Below are positions 67-59,758 of a DNA stretch of 64,000 nt, piece after piece. The position numbers and the translations under genes were made by a program. Positions within the stretch are counted from its first letter, which is position 1. The number at the start of each line of letters is the position of its first letter. The stretch covers positions 13,328-77,327 of the forward strand of contig CAZQVF010000005.1 of NCBI GenBank assembly GCA_964596735.1, given 5' to 3'. The stretch comes from an uncultured Gammaproteobacteria bacterium (GTDB lineage Bacteria > Patescibacteriota > Patescibacteriia > UBA2591 > UBA6264). The notes beneath the pieces were generated by a model. The model was not told where the DNA came from. It did not search any database and worked only from the letters and a program-made list of their open reading frames with translations.

Positions 67-148
67 AAGAACCTTCTCGCTCTGCTCGCAGAACCTTGAA
101 ATTAAATTATTATTGTATAAAAATTAAGGTAATTTGATTATAAAACTT
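67..148 (+). promoter_or_regulatory. Copy of the dispersed promoter cassette, upstream of aspS: AAGAACC-N15-CAGAACC, TTGAAA, TGTATAAA, then ATTATAAAA 4 nt before the ATG
   Basis: Near-identical sequence recurs at 12459-12530(-), 15163-15213(-), 17267-17422(+, two copies), 42865-42918(-) and 59041-59149(+). It has -35/-10-like hexamers and always points towards a downstream start codon. Confidence 0.55.
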
Positions 149-12458: not shown

Positions 12459-12530
12459 ACCCTATAATTAAATTACATTAATTTATATATAATAATTTAA
12501 TTTCAAGGTTCTGGTAAAGTCAGGTTCTTA
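12459..12530 (-). promoter_or_regulatory. Promoter cassette copy upstream of rpmH
   Basis: Minus-strand reads AAGAACCTGACTTTACCAGAACCTTGAAATTAAATTATTATATATAAATTAATGTAATTTAATTATAGGG; same family as 67-148. Confidence 0.5.
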
Positions 12531-15162: not shown

Positions 15163-15213
15163 TTTTATAATTAAAATATTTTTTAATTTCAAGGTTCTGC
15201 GAAACAGGTTCTT
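15163..15213 (-). promoter_or_regulatory. Promoter cassette copy upstream of rbfA (-35 TTGAAA, 17-nt spacer, -10 TATAAA, 1 nt before ATG)
   Basis: Minus strand: AAGAACCTGTTTCGCAGAACCTTGAAATTAAAAAATATTTTAATTATAAAAATG. Confidence 0.55.
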
Positions 15214-16997: not shown

Positions 16998-17231
16998 TTA
17001 TTTAATATTTAATTTTTCCTTAAACTTTGGGACATCAAATCCCATAATCATTTCCCCGTCGATTTCTGTTACGGGTACGGCCATCTGCCCTGTTTTTTTA
17101 ATAAAATCATCAACCAGATCCTGATGTTGACTAAGATCAACCTCTTCAAACTCGATTTTATTCTCATTTAAAAAATCTTTGACATGGTGGCAATAAAGAC
17201 ATGATGGTGATGTATAAACAATTATTTTCAT
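16998..17231 (-). CDS. Glutaredoxin/NrdH-like thiol-disulfide oxidoreductase
   Basis: 77 aa, CLYC active site in a thioredoxin-fold context (KIIVYTSPSCLYC...VPVTEIDG). Confidence 0.6.
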   Translation of the reverse strand: MKIIVYTSPSCLYCHHVKDFLNENKIEFEEVDLSQHQDLVDDFIKKTGQMAVPVTEIDGEMIMGFDVPKFKEKLNIK

Positions 17232-17266
17232 ATATTCTTAGTTAATTGGTTATTTACTGTTAGTAT

Positions 17267-17422
17267 AAGAACCTGCTTCGCAGAACCTTGAAATTAAATT
17301 CTATTATATATAAATTAAGGTAATTTAATTATAAGAACCTGCTTCGCAGAACCTACCTGCCGGCAGGCAGGCCTTGAAATTAAATTCTATTGTATAAATA
17401 ATAATGTATTTTAATTATAAAG
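17267..17422 (+). repeat. Two tandem orphan copies of the promoter cassette (17267-17332 and 17333-17422); the second carries a 12-bp GC palindrome insertion CCTGCCGGCAGG
   Basis: Copy 1 reproduces the aspS upstream region through ...TAAGGTAATTTAATTATAAG, including the equivalent of aspS codons 1-4. Copy 2 carries the GC-rich palindrome at 17356-17367. No + strand ORF follows; both point into the 3' end of the minus-strand RT gene. Confidence 0.55.
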
Positions 17423-17464
17423 ATTAGAAAAAGCTCGTCAAGTTATCTTATTTTGTAATAATAT

Positions 17465-18511
17465 TTATTCTACTAAACCTACTTTCTTTCTAAATTTATA
17501 CGTATTTCCGTGAATCAATAGTCCTTGATAAGAAATAACTGTCTGTCGTTTTGGATAATTCTTTAATCTTCTAATTATCTTTCGCTTTGTGGTTGTTCGA
17601 ATCTGTCGATAGCATGGAAAATGTATCCAGCCCAAAAAATCTAAACCCGAAGCATAAGTTCTAATACAAACCTTGTGTTGATGAAGTGTCAATTTAAGTT
17701 CTTTTTGTAAAAATTCAGTGATTCTTAACAATAAACCATTGAGATACTCTTTATTGTCCGATAAAATAACGAAATCGTCGCCATATCTAATATAATATTT
17801 CACTCGCAATTCCTGTTTTATATACATATCAAATTCGTGCATATAAACATTAACGAAAAGTTGGGAAGTGAGGTTGCCAAGGGGCAGACCTATCCCCAAA
17901 CGGCTGGAATAAAAACTAAAAACTACCCTTTCAATCAACCGAATAATTTGAGAATCGTTAATGTGTCTCTTTAATATTTTAATAAGGATTTGCTGATCAA
18001 TGTTAGCAAAAAATTTCTGAATATCGCATTTTAGAATATAACAAGTTTGAGAATTATTTTTTGATACCTTCTGGGCAAAATATCTGAATCTGTTCAAAGC
18101 GCGATGCACTCCCTTGTTTTCTCTACACGAATATACATCATAAATAAACTTTCTATCAAAATAAGGACACAGCTCCTTATAAATGAGATGATGTAATAAC
18201 CGATCACGCACCGTAGCTTTGTGAATATTTCTCGGCTTGGGGTCAGAAATATTAAAAGCCGAATATGGTCCGTGAATATAAGTAAAATTAACCAGAGACT
18301 TATAAAGATCTATTAAATTATCGGCCAGCTTTATTTGAAAAATCATCACATCTTTTTTATGTCTTTTACCACACAAAAAACGCTCCCAAGTCGCTAAGAG
18401 ATTTTCTATCTTAATAATATCAATATATTTAACTTTAAACATATGACTACAATATCTGCGCGAGTACCATTGGTGCTTGTTAGAACAAAAAGGGCTTATC
18501 AAATTTGGCAC
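17465..18511 (-). CDS. Diversity-generating retroelement (DGR) reverse transcriptase
   Basis: RT motifs including LPLGNLTSQLFVNVYM ([ILV]GxxxSQ, DGR-specific) and YIRYGDDFVIL (YxDD). N-terminal ENLL...GKR.K...PY.AF.I.DPKPR.I..A...DRLLHHLI pattern typical of DGR RTs. The real start may be Met24 (18442). TR lies ~330 bp upstream. Confidence 0.85.
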   Translation of the reverse strand: MPNLISPFCSNKHQWYSRRYCSHMFKVKYIDIIKIENLLATWERFLCGKRHKKDVMIFQIKLADNLIDLYKSLVNFTYIHGPYSAFNISDPKPRNIHKATVRDRLLHHLIYKELCPYFDRKFIYDVYSCRENKGVHRALNRFRYFAQKVSKNNSQTCYILKCDIQKFFANIDQQILIKILKRHINDSQIIRLIERVVFSFYSSRLGIGLPLGNLTSQLFVNVYMHEFDMYIKQELRVKYYIRYGDDFVILSDNKEYLNGLLLRITEFLQKELKLTLHQHKVCIRTYASGLDFLGWIHFPCYRQIRTTTKRKIIRRLKNYPKRQTVISYQGLLIHGNTYKFRKKVGLVE

Positions 18512-18820
18512 AAAAATTTAGTCAATCTTAATCGACTTGATCGCTATACTATTGGTGCTAAAATCGATGAATATTTTCTATCTTTATTGGAATTAATTTT
18601 TAAGGCCTGTTTTGCTTACGATAAATTTGAAAAACTCTCAATGGTATCACAAGCGATTGGTAAAAACGATTTATTAAAATTCTTTTTACAGATTGGTTGG
18701 GAACAAAAAACCATTAACCATAAAAATTATGGTCTTCTAATACTTTTACTTGATGAAGTTGGTCGAATGCTGGGTGGCTGGAAAAAAAATATACAAGAAA
18801 AAACTCCCGCTAGTAAGTAG
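18443..18820 (+). CDS. Avd-like accessory variability determinant (four-helix-bundle, 23S rRNA IVS protein family), on the opposite strand
   Basis: 125 aa, predicted all-helical. C-terminal LDEVGRMLGGW resembles the conserved Avd/four-helix-bundle motif, and AYQIWHK resembles the N-terminal helix. It sits between TR and RT, on the opposite strand. Confidence 0.5.
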   Translation: MTTISARVPLVLVRTKRAYQIWHKNLVNLNRLDRYTIGAKIDEYFLSLLELIFKACFAYDKFEKLSMVSQAIGKNDLLKFFLQIGWEQKTINHKNYGLLILLLDEVGRMLGGWKKNIQEKTPASK

Positions 18821-18840
18821 CAGGAGAAAAAATTAAATAA

Positions 18841-18960
18841 GTCACAGAAGCAGAGCAGGCAGTCGTTATCATCCCAAGCGTTCTCAAAGTTGCCGAGGTT
18901 GAAATTAAAGTCATCATCCGAGTTGCGGTTGACATTCGGCACGCGGTAGTTGCCGTCAGA
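18841..18960 (-). repeat. DGR template repeat (TR), 120 bp, Asn(AAY)-codon rich
   Basis: 120-nt alignment to 19299-19418 with 16 mismatches. All 15 internal mismatches are A in the TR coding (minus) strand; one T/C mismatch lies at the extreme 3' (IMH-like GC-rich) end. Read in the VR frame it gives SDGNYRVPNVNRNSDDDFNFNLGNFENAWDDNDCLLCFCD. Confidence 0.85.
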
Positions 18961-19189
18961 CAATGTACAGCCCGCCACCTTTTTCACTAAGGGTAACGCC
19001 AGTCGCCCTCTGTATTTTATTCTGAGCCAAAATGCTCAATAGCACGCTGCACCGACTGATTTAATTTTTTCATAAAAGGTTGCACTCATTTACTAAGCAT
19101 GCCCAGTAAATTCCTGGCAAACTCCCTTTACGAGAATTCGATGATATAAAGCCATGGCCACATATCCAATCTATTATCCAAAAATATTA

Positions 19190-19238
19190 TACAGAAAAAA
19201 TACATAAAAGAAAAGGGTCCTTACATTGGTAAGAACCC
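19190..19238 (-). terminator. Rho-independent terminator downstream of the DGR target gene
   Basis: Minus strand: GGGTTCTTACC-AATG-TAAGGACCC hairpin (one mismatch) followed by TTTTCTTTTATGTATTTTTT. Confidence 0.5.
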
Positions 19239-19289
19239 AAAGGGTCAAAAAATCCAAAGAACAGGACTAAGAAACCAAGTGCCTAAGCA

Positions 19290-19997
19290 CTAATCGCAGT
19301 CGCAGAAGCAGAGCAGGCAGTCGCTATCATCCCAAGCGTCCTCAAAGGGGCCGAGGAAGAAAATAAAGTCACCAACCGAGTAGCGGTCGACAGACGGCAC
19401 GCGGTAGCTGCCGTCAGAATCGATCCAGAGAGCCTCTTTCTCATCAAACGAGACAGACCAACGGCTCTTTGGCAACTTGTTTTTGGCAAGTTCATAGACC
19501 AGTGAAGCGCCTTGAGCGCCGGCTAAAACAGCTTTCTGAGAATACAGGAAATTTAAACAGTCTTCCGAAGTCACAGTTTCTGTGATATTAAAAACCTTTA
19601 CCTTGAACTTTCTGCCAGGCACGAGCTTTGTTGTCGCTTTGTTAAAGTGCTTATCAGTGATGTCGGAATTGTAGTAATTAAATTCCGAGCCATGCGCTGC
19701 TGCAAAGTCAGTCAAGCGCGTAGCATGGTCGTAACCCTTAGGCACAACAATGTTAAACGCATTGGCCAATTTGAAGCGCGGGTCAGGCATAAACGGTGAA
19801 AGAGCTTGCTGACGTTGTTTCTGTGTCAGATTTAAAAAACATTCATATTCTGGCAAACTCATTTGCCCTTTCTTGATCTTCTGATTGCAATCCATATGCA
19901 GACCAGCCAATTTGGCCGCTTCTGCGCCGATAGATGTCTTATCCATCATTTTCTCCTTTGATACCAAGAGTTTAATAATTGACCCCATGCCAATCAT
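19290..19997 (-). CDS. DGR variable (target) protein, 235 aa, with the variable repeat encoding its last ~40 residues
   Basis: C-terminus ...SDGSYRVPSVDRYSVGDFIFFLGPFEDAWDDSDCLLCFCDCD is the diversified counterpart of the TR-encoded peptide. No signal peptide is evident. Confidence 0.75.
   Translation of the reverse strand: MIGMGSIIKLLVSKEKMMDKTSIGAEAAKLAGLHMDCNQKIKKGQMSLPEYECFLNLTQKQRQQALSPFMPDPRFKLANAFNIVVPKGYDHATRLTDFAAAHGSEFNYYNSDITDKHFNKATTKLVPGRKFKVKVFNITETVTSEDCLNFLYSQKAVLAGAQGASLVYELAKNKLPKSRWSVSFDEKEALWIDSDGSYRVPSVDRYSVGDFIFFLGPFEDAWDDSDCLLCFCDCD
19299..19418 (-). repeat. DGR variable repeat (VR) at the 3' end of the target gene
   Basis: See TR. A GC-rich invariant 3' segment (CGACTGCCTGCTCTGCTTCTG) forms an IMH-like end. 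A small hairpin GTGC-TTAG-GCAC abuts the stop codon. Confidence 0.85.
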
Positions 19998-20092
19998 TTT
20001 CTCAGTATTGATAATATTATGTCATATTTTAGCCTTTTTGTCAACACTCCTATTCCAAAAGACTTAAAATTTATATTAATCTAAAATAAAAA

Positions 20093-20200
20093 CACCGCCG
20101 AGGAGAATCGAACTCCTGAGACGGATTTGCCTTTAGCGGAAAACCTGGCGTCCTACAATGCTTAATAAATTAAAATGGCCCCGAGGAGAATTGAGTGAAA
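20093..20200 (-). other. Two tRNA 3'-end-like fragments (T-arm plus acceptor 3' strand), possible integration scars
   Basis: Minus strand: GGAGTTCGATTCTCCTCGGCGGTG (20093-20116) and CAATTCTCCTCGGGGCCA (~20177-20194). No complementary 5' acceptor strand or D/anticodon arms could be built. Confidence 0.3.
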
Positions 20201-20201
20201 A

Positions 20202-20891
20202 TTATTTTAATCCACTTTGTAATTTTAACGCGTCAATCCATCCTTTAATTCGAAAAGCTATCTTACGACCATGTACACGTAAATCAAGTGTGCCATATGG
20301 CAAAGAATTGATTGGACGTTTTCTGTTGCTCGCTTTGCTTATTTGTTTAAAAATGCGAAAACGACTTTTAGGAATATTAGTTACTCTAGCCCAAAAATTA
20401 ATGGCAGATTGCTCGCTAATATTAGCATGTATTCTAACACATACTTTTAATTTCTCTTCAGGGACTTTAATAATTTCTCGTAAAAAGCGAAGAAACAACG
20501 CAATCATATAAGGATCAGCATTAACAAAATCAACTACATACCCTTTGTTTTTTTGAGCCTCAATTTTATATCCCTCTGCCCAATAAAGAGCATTTGCAAC
20601 TAATAATAACTCATATTTTGACAACGAATGAATTTCATTAAAAGTCTCCTTCTTTATTCTCTGATTTTCAATCCAAATAGCACGTGTCCGTTGCCGATTG
20701 TTTTCAAATAACCCATGTTCTCGAGCAATTCTCGTTTTTTTTTCTAAAAGCTTTTTTGCTGACTTTGTTAGTTTTAAGTCTCTAAACCAAACGCTAAGCG
20801 AGCCCTTGGAAACACTTAAAGTACGAGCTATTTCATTGTAACTTTTACCCTTTAACCGCAACCTGAGCGCTTTTTGATATTGTGGATGCAT
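20202..20891 (-). CDS. HTH-domain protein of unknown function (transposase-type HTH; possible homing-endonuclease-like C-terminal region)
   Basis: KGKSYNEIARTLSVSKGSLSVWFRD is a transposase/sigma-region-4-like HTH; NALYWAEGYK is vaguely LAGLIDADG-like. The ORF track starts at 20954 inside tRNA-Glu; I prefer Met22 (20891). Confidence 0.35.
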   Translation of the reverse strand: MHPQYQKALRLRLKGKSYNEIARTLSVSKGSLSVWFRDLKLTKSAKKLLEKKTRIAREHGLFENNRQRTRAIWIENQRIKKETFNEIHSLSKYELLLVANALYWAEGYKIEAQKNKGYVVDFVNADPYMIALFLRFLREIIKVPEEKLKVCVRIHANISEQSAINFWARVTNIPKSRFRIFKQISKASNRKRPINSLPYGTLDLRVHGRKIAFRIKGWIDALKLQSGLK

Positions 20892-20909
20892 AATAATTAA
20901 ATATATAAG

Positions 20910-20982
20910 TAGCGCCAAGGGGAATCGAACCCCTGTTACATGGTTGAAAACCATGTGTCCTGACCACTAGACGATGGCGCCA
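20910..20982 (-). tRNA. tRNA-Glu (anticodon TTC)
   Basis: Minus strand GGCGCCATCGTCTAGTGGTCAGGACACATGGTTTTCAACCATGTAACAGGGGTTCGATTCCCCTTGGCGCTA. D-arm TCGTCTAG...GGAC as in bacterial tRNA-Glu, anticodon loop TTTTCAA, canonical TTCGATT T-loop, G1-U72 wobble. Confidence 0.8.
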
Positions 20983-42864: not shown

Positions 42865-42918
42865 AGTTTATAATTAAAATGTTTTTTAATTTCAAGGTTC
42901 TGGCGAAGCCAGGTTCTT
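42865..42918 (-). promoter_or_regulatory. Promoter cassette copy upstream of the AI-2E transporter gene (-35 TTGAAA, 17-nt spacer, -10 TATAAA, 2 nt before ATG)
   Basis: Minus strand: AAGAACCTGGCTTCGCCAGAACCTTGAAATTAAAAAACATTTTAATTATAAACTATG. Confidence 0.55.
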
Positions 42919-45628: not shown

Positions 45629-46720
<1,092 letters not shown>

Positions 46721-46759
46721 TTATTTATAAGCAAAGCTTGAAATTAAAAAACATTTTAA

Positions 46760-47479
46760 CTATAAATGCCAGCTGAAAAACAGCTTAATCACTTTCTCGG
46801 CTATTTGTAAATCCTTTTGGACAAATTTTTGTTGAATTAAAGAAGCAAAATCTTGGTAAAGCAATTTTCGTAAAACCATTAAAGCTTTTATATTAATTCT
46901 GACTTGTTGATTGTTAGCGTTGTCATCTAAATTATGTTTTAAGCAAACAATTCCCCCTTTTTCTAAATTAAAAACAATCTCTTCTTCTTGGGGTGTTTGA
47001 TAACAAATTAGACAGGTTTTTATCTCTGGACAATATCCTGAGAAAGCGAGGAATTTGATTAAAAAAGCATGATTAATAATCCTAATTTTATTTAAAGGAA
47101 TTTGATTAATTATTTTTAAAAATTTTAATATCAGAAGGAAAATTTTTTTATCAGACTGGGGTTTAATTAATTGATTAATTCGTTTTAGTAAAGTATTGGT
47201 TTGAATAATCTTTTGTTCTTCTGTAATAATATTCTTAAAACGTTCCTTAACCTCACCGCCAATTAAATGAGTATGACTTTTCCCTGGAGCAACAACTAAA
47301 TCTAATAAAGCAAAAGGCTCCGAAATAAGTGGAGCCAGCTTAGAATTGATTTTACGAGCCCCGCGAACAAAGACTTCTAATTTGCCAGATTCTTGACTAT
47401 AAAAAGATATAACTTGATCATTCTCCCGCCAATTCTCTCTGGCCAAAATTATTCCCAGTAAATGTTGGGTTCTAGACAT
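46760..47479 (-). CDS. recO: DNA repair protein RecO
   Basis: N-terminal OB fold (GIILARENWRENDQVISFYSQESGKL) and C-terminal C4 zinc motif (CLICYQ...CLKH). Confidence 0.7.
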   Translation of the reverse strand: MSRTQHLLGIILARENWRENDQVISFYSQESGKLEVFVRGARKINSKLAPLISEPFALLDLVVAPGKSHTHLIGGEVKERFKNIITEEQKIIQTNTLLKRINQLIKPQSDKKIFLLILKFLKIINQIPLNKIRIINHAFLIKFLAFSGYCPEIKTCLICYQTPQEEEIVFNLEKGGIVCLKHNLDDNANNQQVRINIKALMVLRKLLYQDFASLIQQKFVQKDLQIAEKVIKLFFSWHL

Positions 47480-59040: not shown

Positions 59041-59149
59041 AAGAACCTGCTCACTTCGTTCGCAGAACCTTGAAATTAAATATTTATTGTATAAAATATT
59101 AATGTACTTCAATTATAATATATTAACATTTTAAACTTATTTAGCAAGT
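59041..59149 (+). promoter_or_regulatory. Promoter cassette copy upstream of the M50 peptidase gene
   Basis: AAGAACCTGCTCACTTCGTTCGCAGAACCTTGAAATTAAATATTTATTGTATAAAATATTAATGTACTTCAATTATAATA... Confidence 0.5.
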
Positions 59150-59758
59150 ATGACTAAACTTTTTATTTATATCATCATTATTCTCTCTGCTGTTTTTCAT
59201 GAATATGCTCATGGTTGGGCAGCTTATCAGCTGGGGGATTCAACGGCCAAAGATGAAGGCCGTTTAACTTTAAATCCTCTTGTCCATTTAGACCCTATTG
59301 GAACAGTAATCCTTCCTCTTTTTTTATTATTTACCTCTGGAATGTTTCTTGGTTGGGCCAAGCCTGTTCCTTATAATCCTTATAATCTTCGAGACCTAAA
59401 ATACGGAACACTAAAGGTGGCGGCGGCTGGGCCAGGGGCTAATCTTTTAATTGCCTTAGTTGTTGGCCTTATATTAAGGCTCTTTCTGCCCGTCATCTCC
59501 AGCTATAGCATGTTTCTTCCGTTTTACCTTGGTTTTATTGTTTATGTTAATATATTTTTAGCTTTGTTTAATTTATTGCCCTTCCCTCCCCTTGATGGTT
59601 CAAAAATATTCGCTGACCTCTTCCCTGATCAATGGAAATATTTTATGCAATTAGGAATGATGGGGATTTTTATTGCTCTCTTTGTGGCCTTTTTTATACT
59701 TTCTCCTATTGCTAATTTTATTTTTAAAATAATTGTTGGGCAAGGATTTATATTTTAG
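59150..59758 (+). CDS. M50-family (site-2 protease-like) membrane metallopeptidase, small form
   Basis: HEYAHGWAA (HExxH) in TM1, multi-TM, LPFPPLDGS motif; 202 aa. Confidence 0.65.
   Translation: MTKLFIYIIIILSAVFHEYAHGWAAYQLGDSTAKDEGRLTLNPLVHLDPIGTVILPLFLLFTSGMFLGWAKPVPYNPYNLRDLKYGTLKVAAAGPGANLLIALVVGLILRLFLPVISSYSMFLPFYLGFIVYVNIFLALFNLLPFPPLDGSKIFADLFPDQWKYFMQLGMMGIFIALFVAFFILSPIANFIFKIIVGQGFIF

Follow-up and report, generated by a model that had tools for sequence, protein, structure and literature searches.

Tandem units between grx and a diversity-generating retroelement in a Patescibacteria genome as probable members of an abundant, apparently undescribed intergenic repeat family

Introduction

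Two promoter-like cassettes lie in tandem between the glutaredoxin gene grx and the reverse transcriptase (RT) gene of a diversity-generating retroelement (DGR) in a metagenome-assembled genome (MAG) of the Patescibacteria (assembly GCA_964596735.1, contig CAZQVF010000005.1). The stretch analyzed here, called the window throughout, is 64,000 nt long, and the pair occupies its positions 17264-17420. The locus raises the question of what such cassettes are and why they face the 3' end of a gene on the other strand. The original prediction, made from the letters of the window, took the first cassette for a duplicated aspS promoter and 5' coding end, and suggested that the pair either transcribes the RT gene in antisense or marks a junction of element insertion or recombination. 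Our analysis indicates, with a probability of roughly three in four, that the pair is an ordinary tandem member of an abundant modular intergenic repeat family of 50 to 90 bp found in Patescibacteria (MAGs of the Parcubacteria/Paceibacteria type), that it was inserted into the grx promoter, and that the family is apparently undescribed. The story of a captured aspS fragment combined with antisense control of the DGR then falls away.

To our knowledge, the promoters and regulatory DNA of Patescibacteria are essentially uncharacterized. A structured block of 50 to 90 bp that recurs across genera, about once per 9 kb, and is gained and lost between strains offers a handle on the organization of transcription in these tiny genomes. 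The family also bears on how small repeats reshape promoters, as with the grx promoter, which was split and regenerated.

Results and discussion

Anatomy and distribution of the repeat family

The pair consists of two head-to-tail units (Table 1), and in this respect the original prediction holds. Both copies read AAGAACC-CTGCTTCGCAG-AACC followed by TTGAAATTAAA...TTTAATTATAA, and copy 1 in full is TATAAGAACC-TGCTTCGC-AGAACC-TTGAAATTAAATTCTATTATATATAAATTAAGGTAATTTAATTATAA. Copy 1 is an exact match to the family pattern, AAGAACC-hairpin-AGAACC-TTGAAATTAAA, from which copy 2 deviates solely by a 20-nt insert before TTGAAA; this GC insert separates AGAACC from TTGAAA in copy 2, whose AT-rich part also differs from that of copy 1 by a few substitutions. 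The 20-mer AGAACCTGCTTCGCAGAACC occurs three times in the window, against an expectation of 0.01. Because the 233-nt intergenic region is identical across seven independent JGI, ENA, and Logan assemblies, the arrangement is no assembly artefact.

In its general form, the unit runs from TATAA and GAACC through a variable GC hairpin (HP1) to AGAACC, and from TTG through an AT-rich hairpin (HP2; AATTAAAN...N'TTTAATT) to ATAA. Scanning genome contigs, one genome per species, for the pattern AAGAACC N8-21 AGAACC N0-20 TTGAAATTAAA returned at least 95 stretches with at least 116 raw matches; the family-wide counts given here and below are those among the matches listed. About 100 of these are true copies, mostly in MAGs labeled Patescibacteria, Parcubacteria, Paceibacteria, or Minisyncoccales (some labels of family carriers are obviously automated), and about a dozen, in which the second gap is filled, are chance matches in coding DNA of other phyla. 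The window itself holds seven full copies and one copy of module 2 only, a density of about one per 9 kb. Tandem arrays are frequent (L016, L032, L041, L056 [x3], L057, L063 [x3], L069 [x3], L071 [x3], and L096; L numbers denote the stretches compared), often as pairs with identical hairpins. A literature search found no paper with TTGAAATTAAA or AGAACCTTGAAA in a relevant context and none describing a Parcubacteria promoter motif or repeat.

Both hairpins covary between copies. HP1 is 8 to 21 nt long, variable in sequence, and always pairs, its short forms being perfect stems of 4 to 6 bp with a triloop of TTC, TTT, or TNC. In the 10-nt class, 90.7% of the cells are paired, three of the five pairs have changed on both sides, and the covariation score was reached by none of 500 shuffles, with slid controls at 17 to 55% paired. 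The 16-nt class is 94.2% paired, its pair 13-19 being GC in 11 sequences and AU in 8, and retains a tandem TC/TC (that is, GA/GA) mismatch. These per-class pair counts were used in place of a crude control that swapped the 5' and 3' halves of HP1, where the excess was modest (0.668 versus 0.593). As wobbles of the G.T and A.C types are equally numerous (14 each), they do not tell the strand of HP1, and the TC/TC mismatch alone hints at the bottom strand, on which HP1 would read as a GCGAAGC-type minihairpin. Minihairpins of this type, with tandem G.A pairs, are stable motifs.

The inner pair of HP2 is Watson-Crick in 63 of 87 distinct copies, compared with 35 expected (T-A 38, C-G 14, and A-T 10). 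The HP2 loop separates a class A, with 4 nt (14 copies), from a class B, with about 23 to 24 nt (72 copies), while TTG and ATAA are conserved outside the stem. Single-sequence folding of the cassettes gives z-scores of only -1.3 to -2.2, and the folding of single cassettes is thus no evidence by itself.

Contigs from short-read assemblies (Logan and ENA; L005, L008, L009, and L193) end inside cassette copies. Two of them, L005 and L008 (Logan), stop within copy 1, with an example end 61 nt upstream of grx. The repeat family therefore fragments short-read assemblies.

Table 1. Positions of the cassette modules, of the other family copies, and of adjoining features in the window
Feature	Position	Strand	Remarks
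Cassette copy 1	17264-17334	+	class B, long-loop type
Copy 1 TATAA junction	17264-17268	+	
Copy 1 AAGAACC	17267-17273	+	
Copy 1 HP1 (CTGC-TTC-GCAG)	17273-17283	+	hairpin predicted on both strands
Copy 1 AGAACC	17282-17287	+	
Copy 1 TTGAAA	17288-17293	+	
Copy 1 HP2 arms	AATTAAAT 17292-17299 / ATTTAATT 17323-17330	+	perfect 8-bp stem
Copy 1 tail TATAA	17330-17334	+	
Cassette copy 2, with GC insert	17330-17420	+	class B
Copy 2 AAGAACC	17333-17339	+	
Copy 2 HP1	17339-17349	+	same sequence as copy 1 HP1
Copy 2 AGAACC	17348-17353	+	
Copy 2 insert	17354-17373		
Copy 2 TTGAAA	17374-17379	+	
Copy 2 HP2 arms	17378-17385 / 17409-17416	+	7 bp plus T.T mismatch at inner pair
Copy 2 tail TATAA	17416-17420	+	
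Left-over ancestral grx -10, TATACT	17262-17267	-	abuts GGTTCT of copy 1; 30 nt upstream of grx ATG
Promoter-like site, TTGACG (17441-17436)-16 nt-TATAAT (17419-17414)	17414-17441	-	points at grx operon
Ancestral intergenic DNA between cassette and DGR insertions	17421-17480		82% identical to empty-site L110
grx (glutaredoxin)	16998-17231	-	first gene of operon grx, HD, HD, yrdC
DGR reverse transcriptase	17465-18442	-	neighbor of repeat, not part of repeat
Family copy, class B	67-143	+	5 nt upstream of aspS ATG (149)
Family copy, class B	12462-12529	-	between rny and rpmH
Family copy, class A (4-nt HP2 loop, TTGAAA-17-TATAAA)	15165-15213	-	between yrdC and rbfA; clean indel, absent in KR13 (L061)
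Family copy, class A	42868-42918	-	orthologous KR13 site (L027) has two copies with differing HP1
Family copy, class B	59041-59118	+	upstream of gene at 59150
Module-2-only variant, TATAAG-CAAAGC-TTGAAATTAAAAAACATTTTAACTATAA	46727-46766	+	points against both flanking genes

Insertion into the grx promoter and turnover among relatives

A scan anchored on the HD protein encoded next to grx supplied relatives of the locus; an exact-pattern scan of metagenome contigs for the conserved right flank gave no match. In the closest relative, L110 (HD protein 95% identical), the site upstream of grx is empty, so the units are an inserted element, an outcome in line with one of the options left by the original prediction. 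L110 aligns to window positions 17192-17268 and 17416-17480, with a single TATAA where the window has one at each junction. Compared with L110, the two cassettes thus represent an insertion of 152 nt. On the grx strand, L110 has an uninterrupted promoter-like site, TTGACG-17-TATACT, whose -10 box is split by the insertion in the window. The right junction forms a hybrid -10 box, TATAAT, with a -35 box in ancestral DNA that is conserved in L061 and L110, and the resulting site, TTGACG-16-TATAAT, has 11 of 12 matches and is the best promoter-like match in the region.

Other relatives differ again at this place. KR13_N2.mb.83 (L061) carries a single, identically oriented copy at this site and no DGR, the place of which is taken by about 130 nt with a terminator-like hairpin and a convergent 99-aa open reading frame (ORF). 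L112 and L113 have neither cassettes nor DGR upstream of grx, and carry, between grx and the HD gene, a tandem pair whose hairpins are identical. At five orthologous sites, in genomes 86 to 95% identical, the copy number is zero, one, or two, and some copies are degraded or differ in HP1.

In all three cases of clean insertion, the bases just before the element are TAA (TTTAA, TATAA, and AATAA), and TATAA also forms the end of the element. The repeat that flanks it is TATAA at the grx site and only TAA at the rbfA and grx-HD sites, as would be expected of a 3-bp duplication or of insertion on the 3' side of a short target. At the rbfA site, the comparison of 15165-15213 with L061 3230-3330 is a clean presence/absence: KR13 reads TTTTTAA, then AGATG, and the insertion point is the stop TAA of yrdC. 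How the copies spread is something that we infer; unequal exchange between repeated tails would account for the tandem arrays.

Similarity to the aspS upstream region

The likeness between copy 1 and the region upstream of aspS is real, 67-143 and 17267-17334 being alike along their whole length (78 to 88% in pieces), but the original prediction extended it into the first codons of aspS, and that part does not stand. The similarity ends at TTATAA (143) and aspS starts at the ATG at 149, its 466-aa product read from 149 being recorded exactly as called in the JGI and Logan assemblies; the TTG at 134 is a mechanical ORF start only. Consequently, the cassettes carry no aspS sequence. The shared tail, AAATTAAGGTAATTTAATTATAA, is the conserved 3' part of the repeat family, which in the window also precedes rpmH (12462-12529) and the gene at 59150, and which precedes unrelated genes in dozens of copies of other genomes. 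Moreover, the rpmH copy (12463-12494 compared with 17302-17333, complementary, 97%) is closer to the tail of copy 1 than the aspS copy is. Duplication of an aspS promoter and 5' coding end is, in view of these tails, almost certainly not the origin of copy 1.

Relation to the diversity-generating retroelement

The cassettes do point at the 3' end of the minus-strand RT gene, as had been noted, with the RT stop codon (17465-17467) 44 nt from the cassette tail, and the 165 nt downstream contain no start of a plus-strand ORF of 20 aa or more. The next plus-strand gene is avd, 1 kb away. A tRNA scan found no tRNA downstream of the cassettes, and Rfam reported just two tRNAs and a tmRNA in the whole window at the gathering threshold and no relevant match in 17200-20300 at E <= 1. 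A known RNA family or small RNA gene was rejected as a downstream partner on this Rfam, tRNA, and ORF evidence, and a co-directional gene or RNA, which a promoter would call for, was not found by the same three approaches. Rfam and tRNA scans of such "orphan" copies in other genomes likewise explained almost none of them.

This orientation is common in the family. Classified by the strand of the flanking ORFs (an earlier ORF-based classifier missed small genes such as rpmH and grx), 27 copies have both flanking genes co-directional with the cassette, 23 have both on the opposite strand, as at 17264-17420, 11 lie between a co-directional gene and a convergent one, and 9 lie between divergent genes. 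Overall, of the 92 copies that could be classified, 42 face a convergent gene at its 3' end, and the "orphan" orientation is therefore ordinary for the family.

The DGR comprises a target gene (19997 to 19290) with its variable region (VR; 19298-19418), the template region (TR; 18840-18960), avd (18443-18820, plus strand; product Pfam bAvd), and the RT gene (18442 to 17465), and the mismatches between TR and VR are all at TR adenines on the minus strand. Neither TR nor VR is similar to 17264-17420. Relative to L110, the DGR is a separate indel of about 2.6 kb, from about 17481 to about 20075-20092, which lies 60 bp from the cassettes.

Two explanations tie the cassettes to this element. The first sees in them a functional control of the DGR, with rightward promoters that make antisense RNA across the RT gene, avd mRNA, or both. 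The short distance to the RT stop would suit it, as would the position of avd on the plus strand with no room for a promoter of its own before the RT start. Furthermore, no plus-strand terminator-like site is predicted between 17420 and 18443, so a cassette transcript could in principle run antisense through RT into avd, and in L109, alone of the related loci, a bare 11-mer, TTGAAATTAAA, lies 90 nt after the RT gene and points back at it. However, seven distinct related DGR loci (L105/L106, L107, L108, L109, L194, L195, and L196; RTs 70 to 85% identical) have no full cassette after RT and keep the inverted avd wherever the region is visible, and in L105 and L106, the closest (RT 85% identical), a co-directional gene starts 57 nt after RT. 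KR13, in turn, has a cassette at the same site without a DGR, 60 bp of ancestral DNA separate the two insertions in the window, and almost half of the family faces a convergent gene. A control function is unlikely in the light of these comparisons, and nothing suggests that plus-strand transcription into RT and avd, if it occurs, would be more than a by-product.

The second explanation, also raised in the original prediction, makes the pair an att-like recombination junction through which the DGR island entered. The joint absence of cassettes and DGR from L110 would be expected in that case, but the DGR indel has its own imperfect direct repeats, 60 bp aligning to L110 stand between the two insertions, and L061 has the cassette without the DGR, which makes a shared entry very improbable. 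We return to the reading of the pair as inserted members of a dispersed family, to which the DGR is a neighbor.

Several features of the DGR itself were observed alongside. The direct repeat that flanks its indel is about 15 nt long (about 17460-17480, AATATTTATTCTACTAAA; 20073-20092, ATATTAATCTAAAATAAAAA) and is single in L110 (AATATTTCTTAATCTAAATCTTAAATAAAAAA); the alignment to L110 takes in the last five RT codons and the stop. The avd gene is on the strand opposite TR and RT, its ATG (18443) standing back-to-back with the RT ATG (18442) with no intergenic space for either promoter, and this inversion is common to L105, L106, L109, L194, L195, and L196. A terminator-like hairpin with a T run (18804-18826, minus strand) directly follows TR and overlaps the avd stop, where it would end the TR transcript before RT. 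Just after the VR and the target-gene stop, where DGR target hairpins are expected, there is a 5-bp hairpin with a 4-nt loop (19278-19291, minus strand). In L107, L108, and L109, a run of 10 to 12 G directly precedes the RT start, a feature absent from the DGR of the window and from L105/L106.

Promoter or structural repeat

Promoter-like hexamers are present in both cassettes, in agreement with the original prediction: TTGAAA-17-TAAATT in copy 1 (9 of 12 matches to the sigma-70 hexamers) and TTGAAA-17-AATAAT in copy 2 (10 of 12). The region holds 11 sigma-70-like sites, against a shuffle expectation of 11.1. Across the family, TTGAAA-17-TATAAn is found in 12 of the 14 class A copies. Forward copies end 0 to 60 nt before an ATG, and one cluster of them has AAGG about 10 nt ahead of the ATG. 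About half of the reversed copies are 0 to 46 nt away from the start codon of a divergent gene, to which they present GGTTCT-TATAAT; in L036, for example, this sequence stands 17 nt before the ATG of tuf.

These positions suggest that the unit may carry outward-facing promoter elements, which on the top strand would be TTGAAA with a -10 box about 14 to 17 nt downstream and on the bottom strand TATAAT or TATACT adjoining GGTTCT. A copy in either orientation could then serve the abutting gene, here grx, and transcription from the rightward half would incidentally enter the RT gene at its 3' end.

The competing view is that the units are structural or selfish repeats of the REP (repetitive extragenic palindromic), BOX, or PATE (palindrome-associated transposable element) kind without a promoter role, the hexamers being a by-product of the AT-rich HP2 palindrome (TTGAAATTAAA versus TTTAATTATAA). 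They would then act, if at all, as DNA or RNA hairpins, for instance as terminators or insulators, mRNA stabilizers, or protein-binding sites, and at this locus they would merely lengthen the grx leader. The almost random orientation and the diffuse -10 box of class B are what such repeats would show, as are the gains and losses between close relatives, and the covariation of both hairpins points to selection on structure and not on hexamer sequence. In the same direction, HP1 reads on the bottom strand as GCGAAGC-type minihairpins with conserved tandem G.A mismatches, and HP1 with TTCTTATAAT is flagged as terminator-like on the minus strand. On the other hand, TTG and ATAA are conserved outside the HP2 stem, the spacing in class A is exactly 17 nt in nearly all copies, forward copies stand tightly before start codons, including operon starts such as that of rpmH, and reversed copies show TATAAT within 7 to 40 nt of a divergent start codon. 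A purely structural role is thus possible, although we consider it clearly the less probable outcome.

Combining the two aspects, the cassettes could be undescribed mobile two-hairpin mini-elements that spread ready-made, possibly bidirectional, promoters by insertion after TAA or TATAA (stop codons and -10 boxes), that are mobilized through single-stranded DNA hairpins (the GCGAAGC-type HP1 of the bottom strand), and that delimit a large share of the transcription units in these reduced Patescibacteria genomes. We put this forward tentatively, with odds well short of even.

Several observations weigh against the picture of an inserted, promoter-bearing family. In class B, TAnnnT at a spacer of 16 to 18 nt occurs in just 21 of 72 copies, and the commonest -10-like box lies at 13 to 15 nt, which is short for sigma-70; the -10 hexamer profile of this class is diffuse and did not yield a clean promoter with 17-nt spacing. 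No recognizable -35 box was found for the proposed bottom-strand promoter, and promoter activity in either direction is a prediction from sequence. An orientation split of nearly 50:50 would be expected of a selfish or structural repeat no less than of a bidirectional promoter. Insertion and precise deletion were compared without a proper outgroup to polarize them. The ends of the unit (GAACC... and ...TTATAA) form no terminal inverted repeats, and no transposase or other mobilizing enzyme was identified in the 64 kb and the genome fragments, the window proteins not having been screened exhaustively. The 11-mer after the RT gene of L109 and the origin proposed below for the GC insert, which has resemblance as its sole basis, belong here as well.

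Comparison with known systems

Correia elements (CREE) of Neisseria are abundant intergenic repeats of about 100 to 150 bp that are bounded by 26-bp terminal inverted repeats, duplicate a TA target, and carry outward-facing sigma-70-like hexamers that can drive adjacent genes; in transcripts, they can also act as hairpins. The units resemble them as short, abundant, strain-polymorphic intergenic repeats in either orientation, with hairpins and with sigma-70-like hexamers that may likewise face outwards. In contrast to CREE, the units follow TAA or TATAA, have two covarying internal hairpins, and form head-to-tail arrays. A Correia-type element, or a miniature inverted-repeat transposable element in general, was rejected because the units have neither terminal inverted repeats nor a fixed target-site duplication. 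The BOX elements of Streptococcus pneumoniae, which have effects on neighboring expression, share with them modularity, small size, a variable number of modules, predicted hairpins, and both orientations; the sequences and modules are unrelated, however, and BOX is not known to be built on -35/-10-like hexamers.

REP/BIME repeats (with their RAYT transposases) and PATEs derived from IS200/IS605 insert by a short specific sequence without a classical target duplication, and their hairpins are read on a single DNA strand. The units are like them as small dispersed imperfect palindromes with compensatory stems, and may be so in their insertion and in the reading of their hairpins. On the bottom strand, the tandem G.A mismatches and GNA triloops of HP1 would suit single-strand recognition, as in the REP and PATE systems, and two covarying hairpins and three insertions 3' of TAA are in keeping with it, although the element ends in TAA, so that a 3-bp duplication fits equally. 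REPs cluster at gene 3' ends. Unlike REP/RAYT repeats, the units lack a GTAG-type tetranucleotide, include promoter-like hexamers, and in many cases directly adjoin a start codon. No RAYT or TnpA gene was identified among the window proteins, which were not exhaustively screened for Y1 (HUH) transposases.

Ordinary sigma-70 promoters, including the tandem rrn P1/P2, resemble the units in the TTGAAA/TATAAn hexamers at 17 nt of class A, in their place directly upstream of genes, and in their tandem arrangement. They differ in that here a block of 50 to 90 bp with two structured hairpins is conserved nearly base for base between unrelated genes and across genera, stands in the "wrong" orientation in about 45% of copies, and is gained or lost as a discrete block. 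An array of the TIGR-Tas or CRISPR-like type was also considered. TIGR arrays lie beside the gene of a Nop-domain Tas protein and comprise 5 to 15 units, each about 36 nt long, whose spacers A and B are not self-complementary (PMC12045711). The candidate was rejected: there are two units only, of 66 and 86 nt, their variable segments are self-complementary and identical, and the neighbors are grx, HD, RT, and Avd.

The GC insert of copy 2

The locus is not special among family members apart from its unique GC insert. This insert, TACCTGCCGGCAGGCAGGCC (20 nt, 75% GC), contains the perfect 12-bp palindrome CCTGCCGGCAGG at 17356-17367 that had been reported, and a check of the whole window confirmed it as the sole GC-rich perfect palindrome of 12 nt. 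The insert folds as a 6-bp hairpin, CCTGCC (17356-61)-GGCA-GGCAGG (17366-71), at -7.2 kcal/mol (z = -2.9), and is located exactly at the joint of module 1 (AGAACC) and module 2 (TTGAAA). Among the roughly 100 copies, AGAACC and TTGAAATTAAA are separated in one other only, L074, by 17 nt.

Comparable additions occur elsewhere in the family. L086 (3753-3830) has a GC-rich hairpin, CCGCCAGGGGCGG, inserted inside HP1, and L037 (3560-3720) has arrays of extra HP1-like modules without module 2. Read as ACC-TGCC-GGCAG-GCAGG-CC, the insert resembles the TGCC/GGCA-type HP1 module AAGAACC-TGCCTTCGGC-AGAACC of L048 and L078. It might accordingly be a degenerate extra HP1-type hairpin module that has lost its loop, or a template-switch product, a suggestion made with low confidence. 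It is probably not a site with a function of its own.

Additional observations

The module-2-only variant at 46727-46766 has GCAAAGC, a minimal GC-AAA-GC hairpin, in place of AAGAACC-HP1-AGAACC, and occurs also in the KR13 loci L018, L050, and L055. On its bottom-strand flank, the gene that starts at 46717 has TATAAA 6 nt ahead of its ATG, a distance that would suit a leaderless start.

Beyond the DGR, a truncated second copy of a tRNA-Glu-like sequence (3' part, with a 12-nt insertion) lies at 20093-20157 and matches the tRNA-Glu of L110 more closely than does the intact tRNA-Glu at 20909-20981. An ORF of 238 to 250 aa (20202-20954), with weak matches to helix-turn-helix/sigma-70 region 4, lies between the two copies. 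This looks like a small integration at a tRNA that supplied a replacement tRNA. At the other end, just left of window position 1, L190 has a tRNA-like sequence at 1285-1357 (anticodon region CTGTTAA, probably tRNA-Asn), which ends at the first bases of the window, with a class II aminoacyl-tRNA synthetase gene upstream of it and the aspS cassette on its other side.

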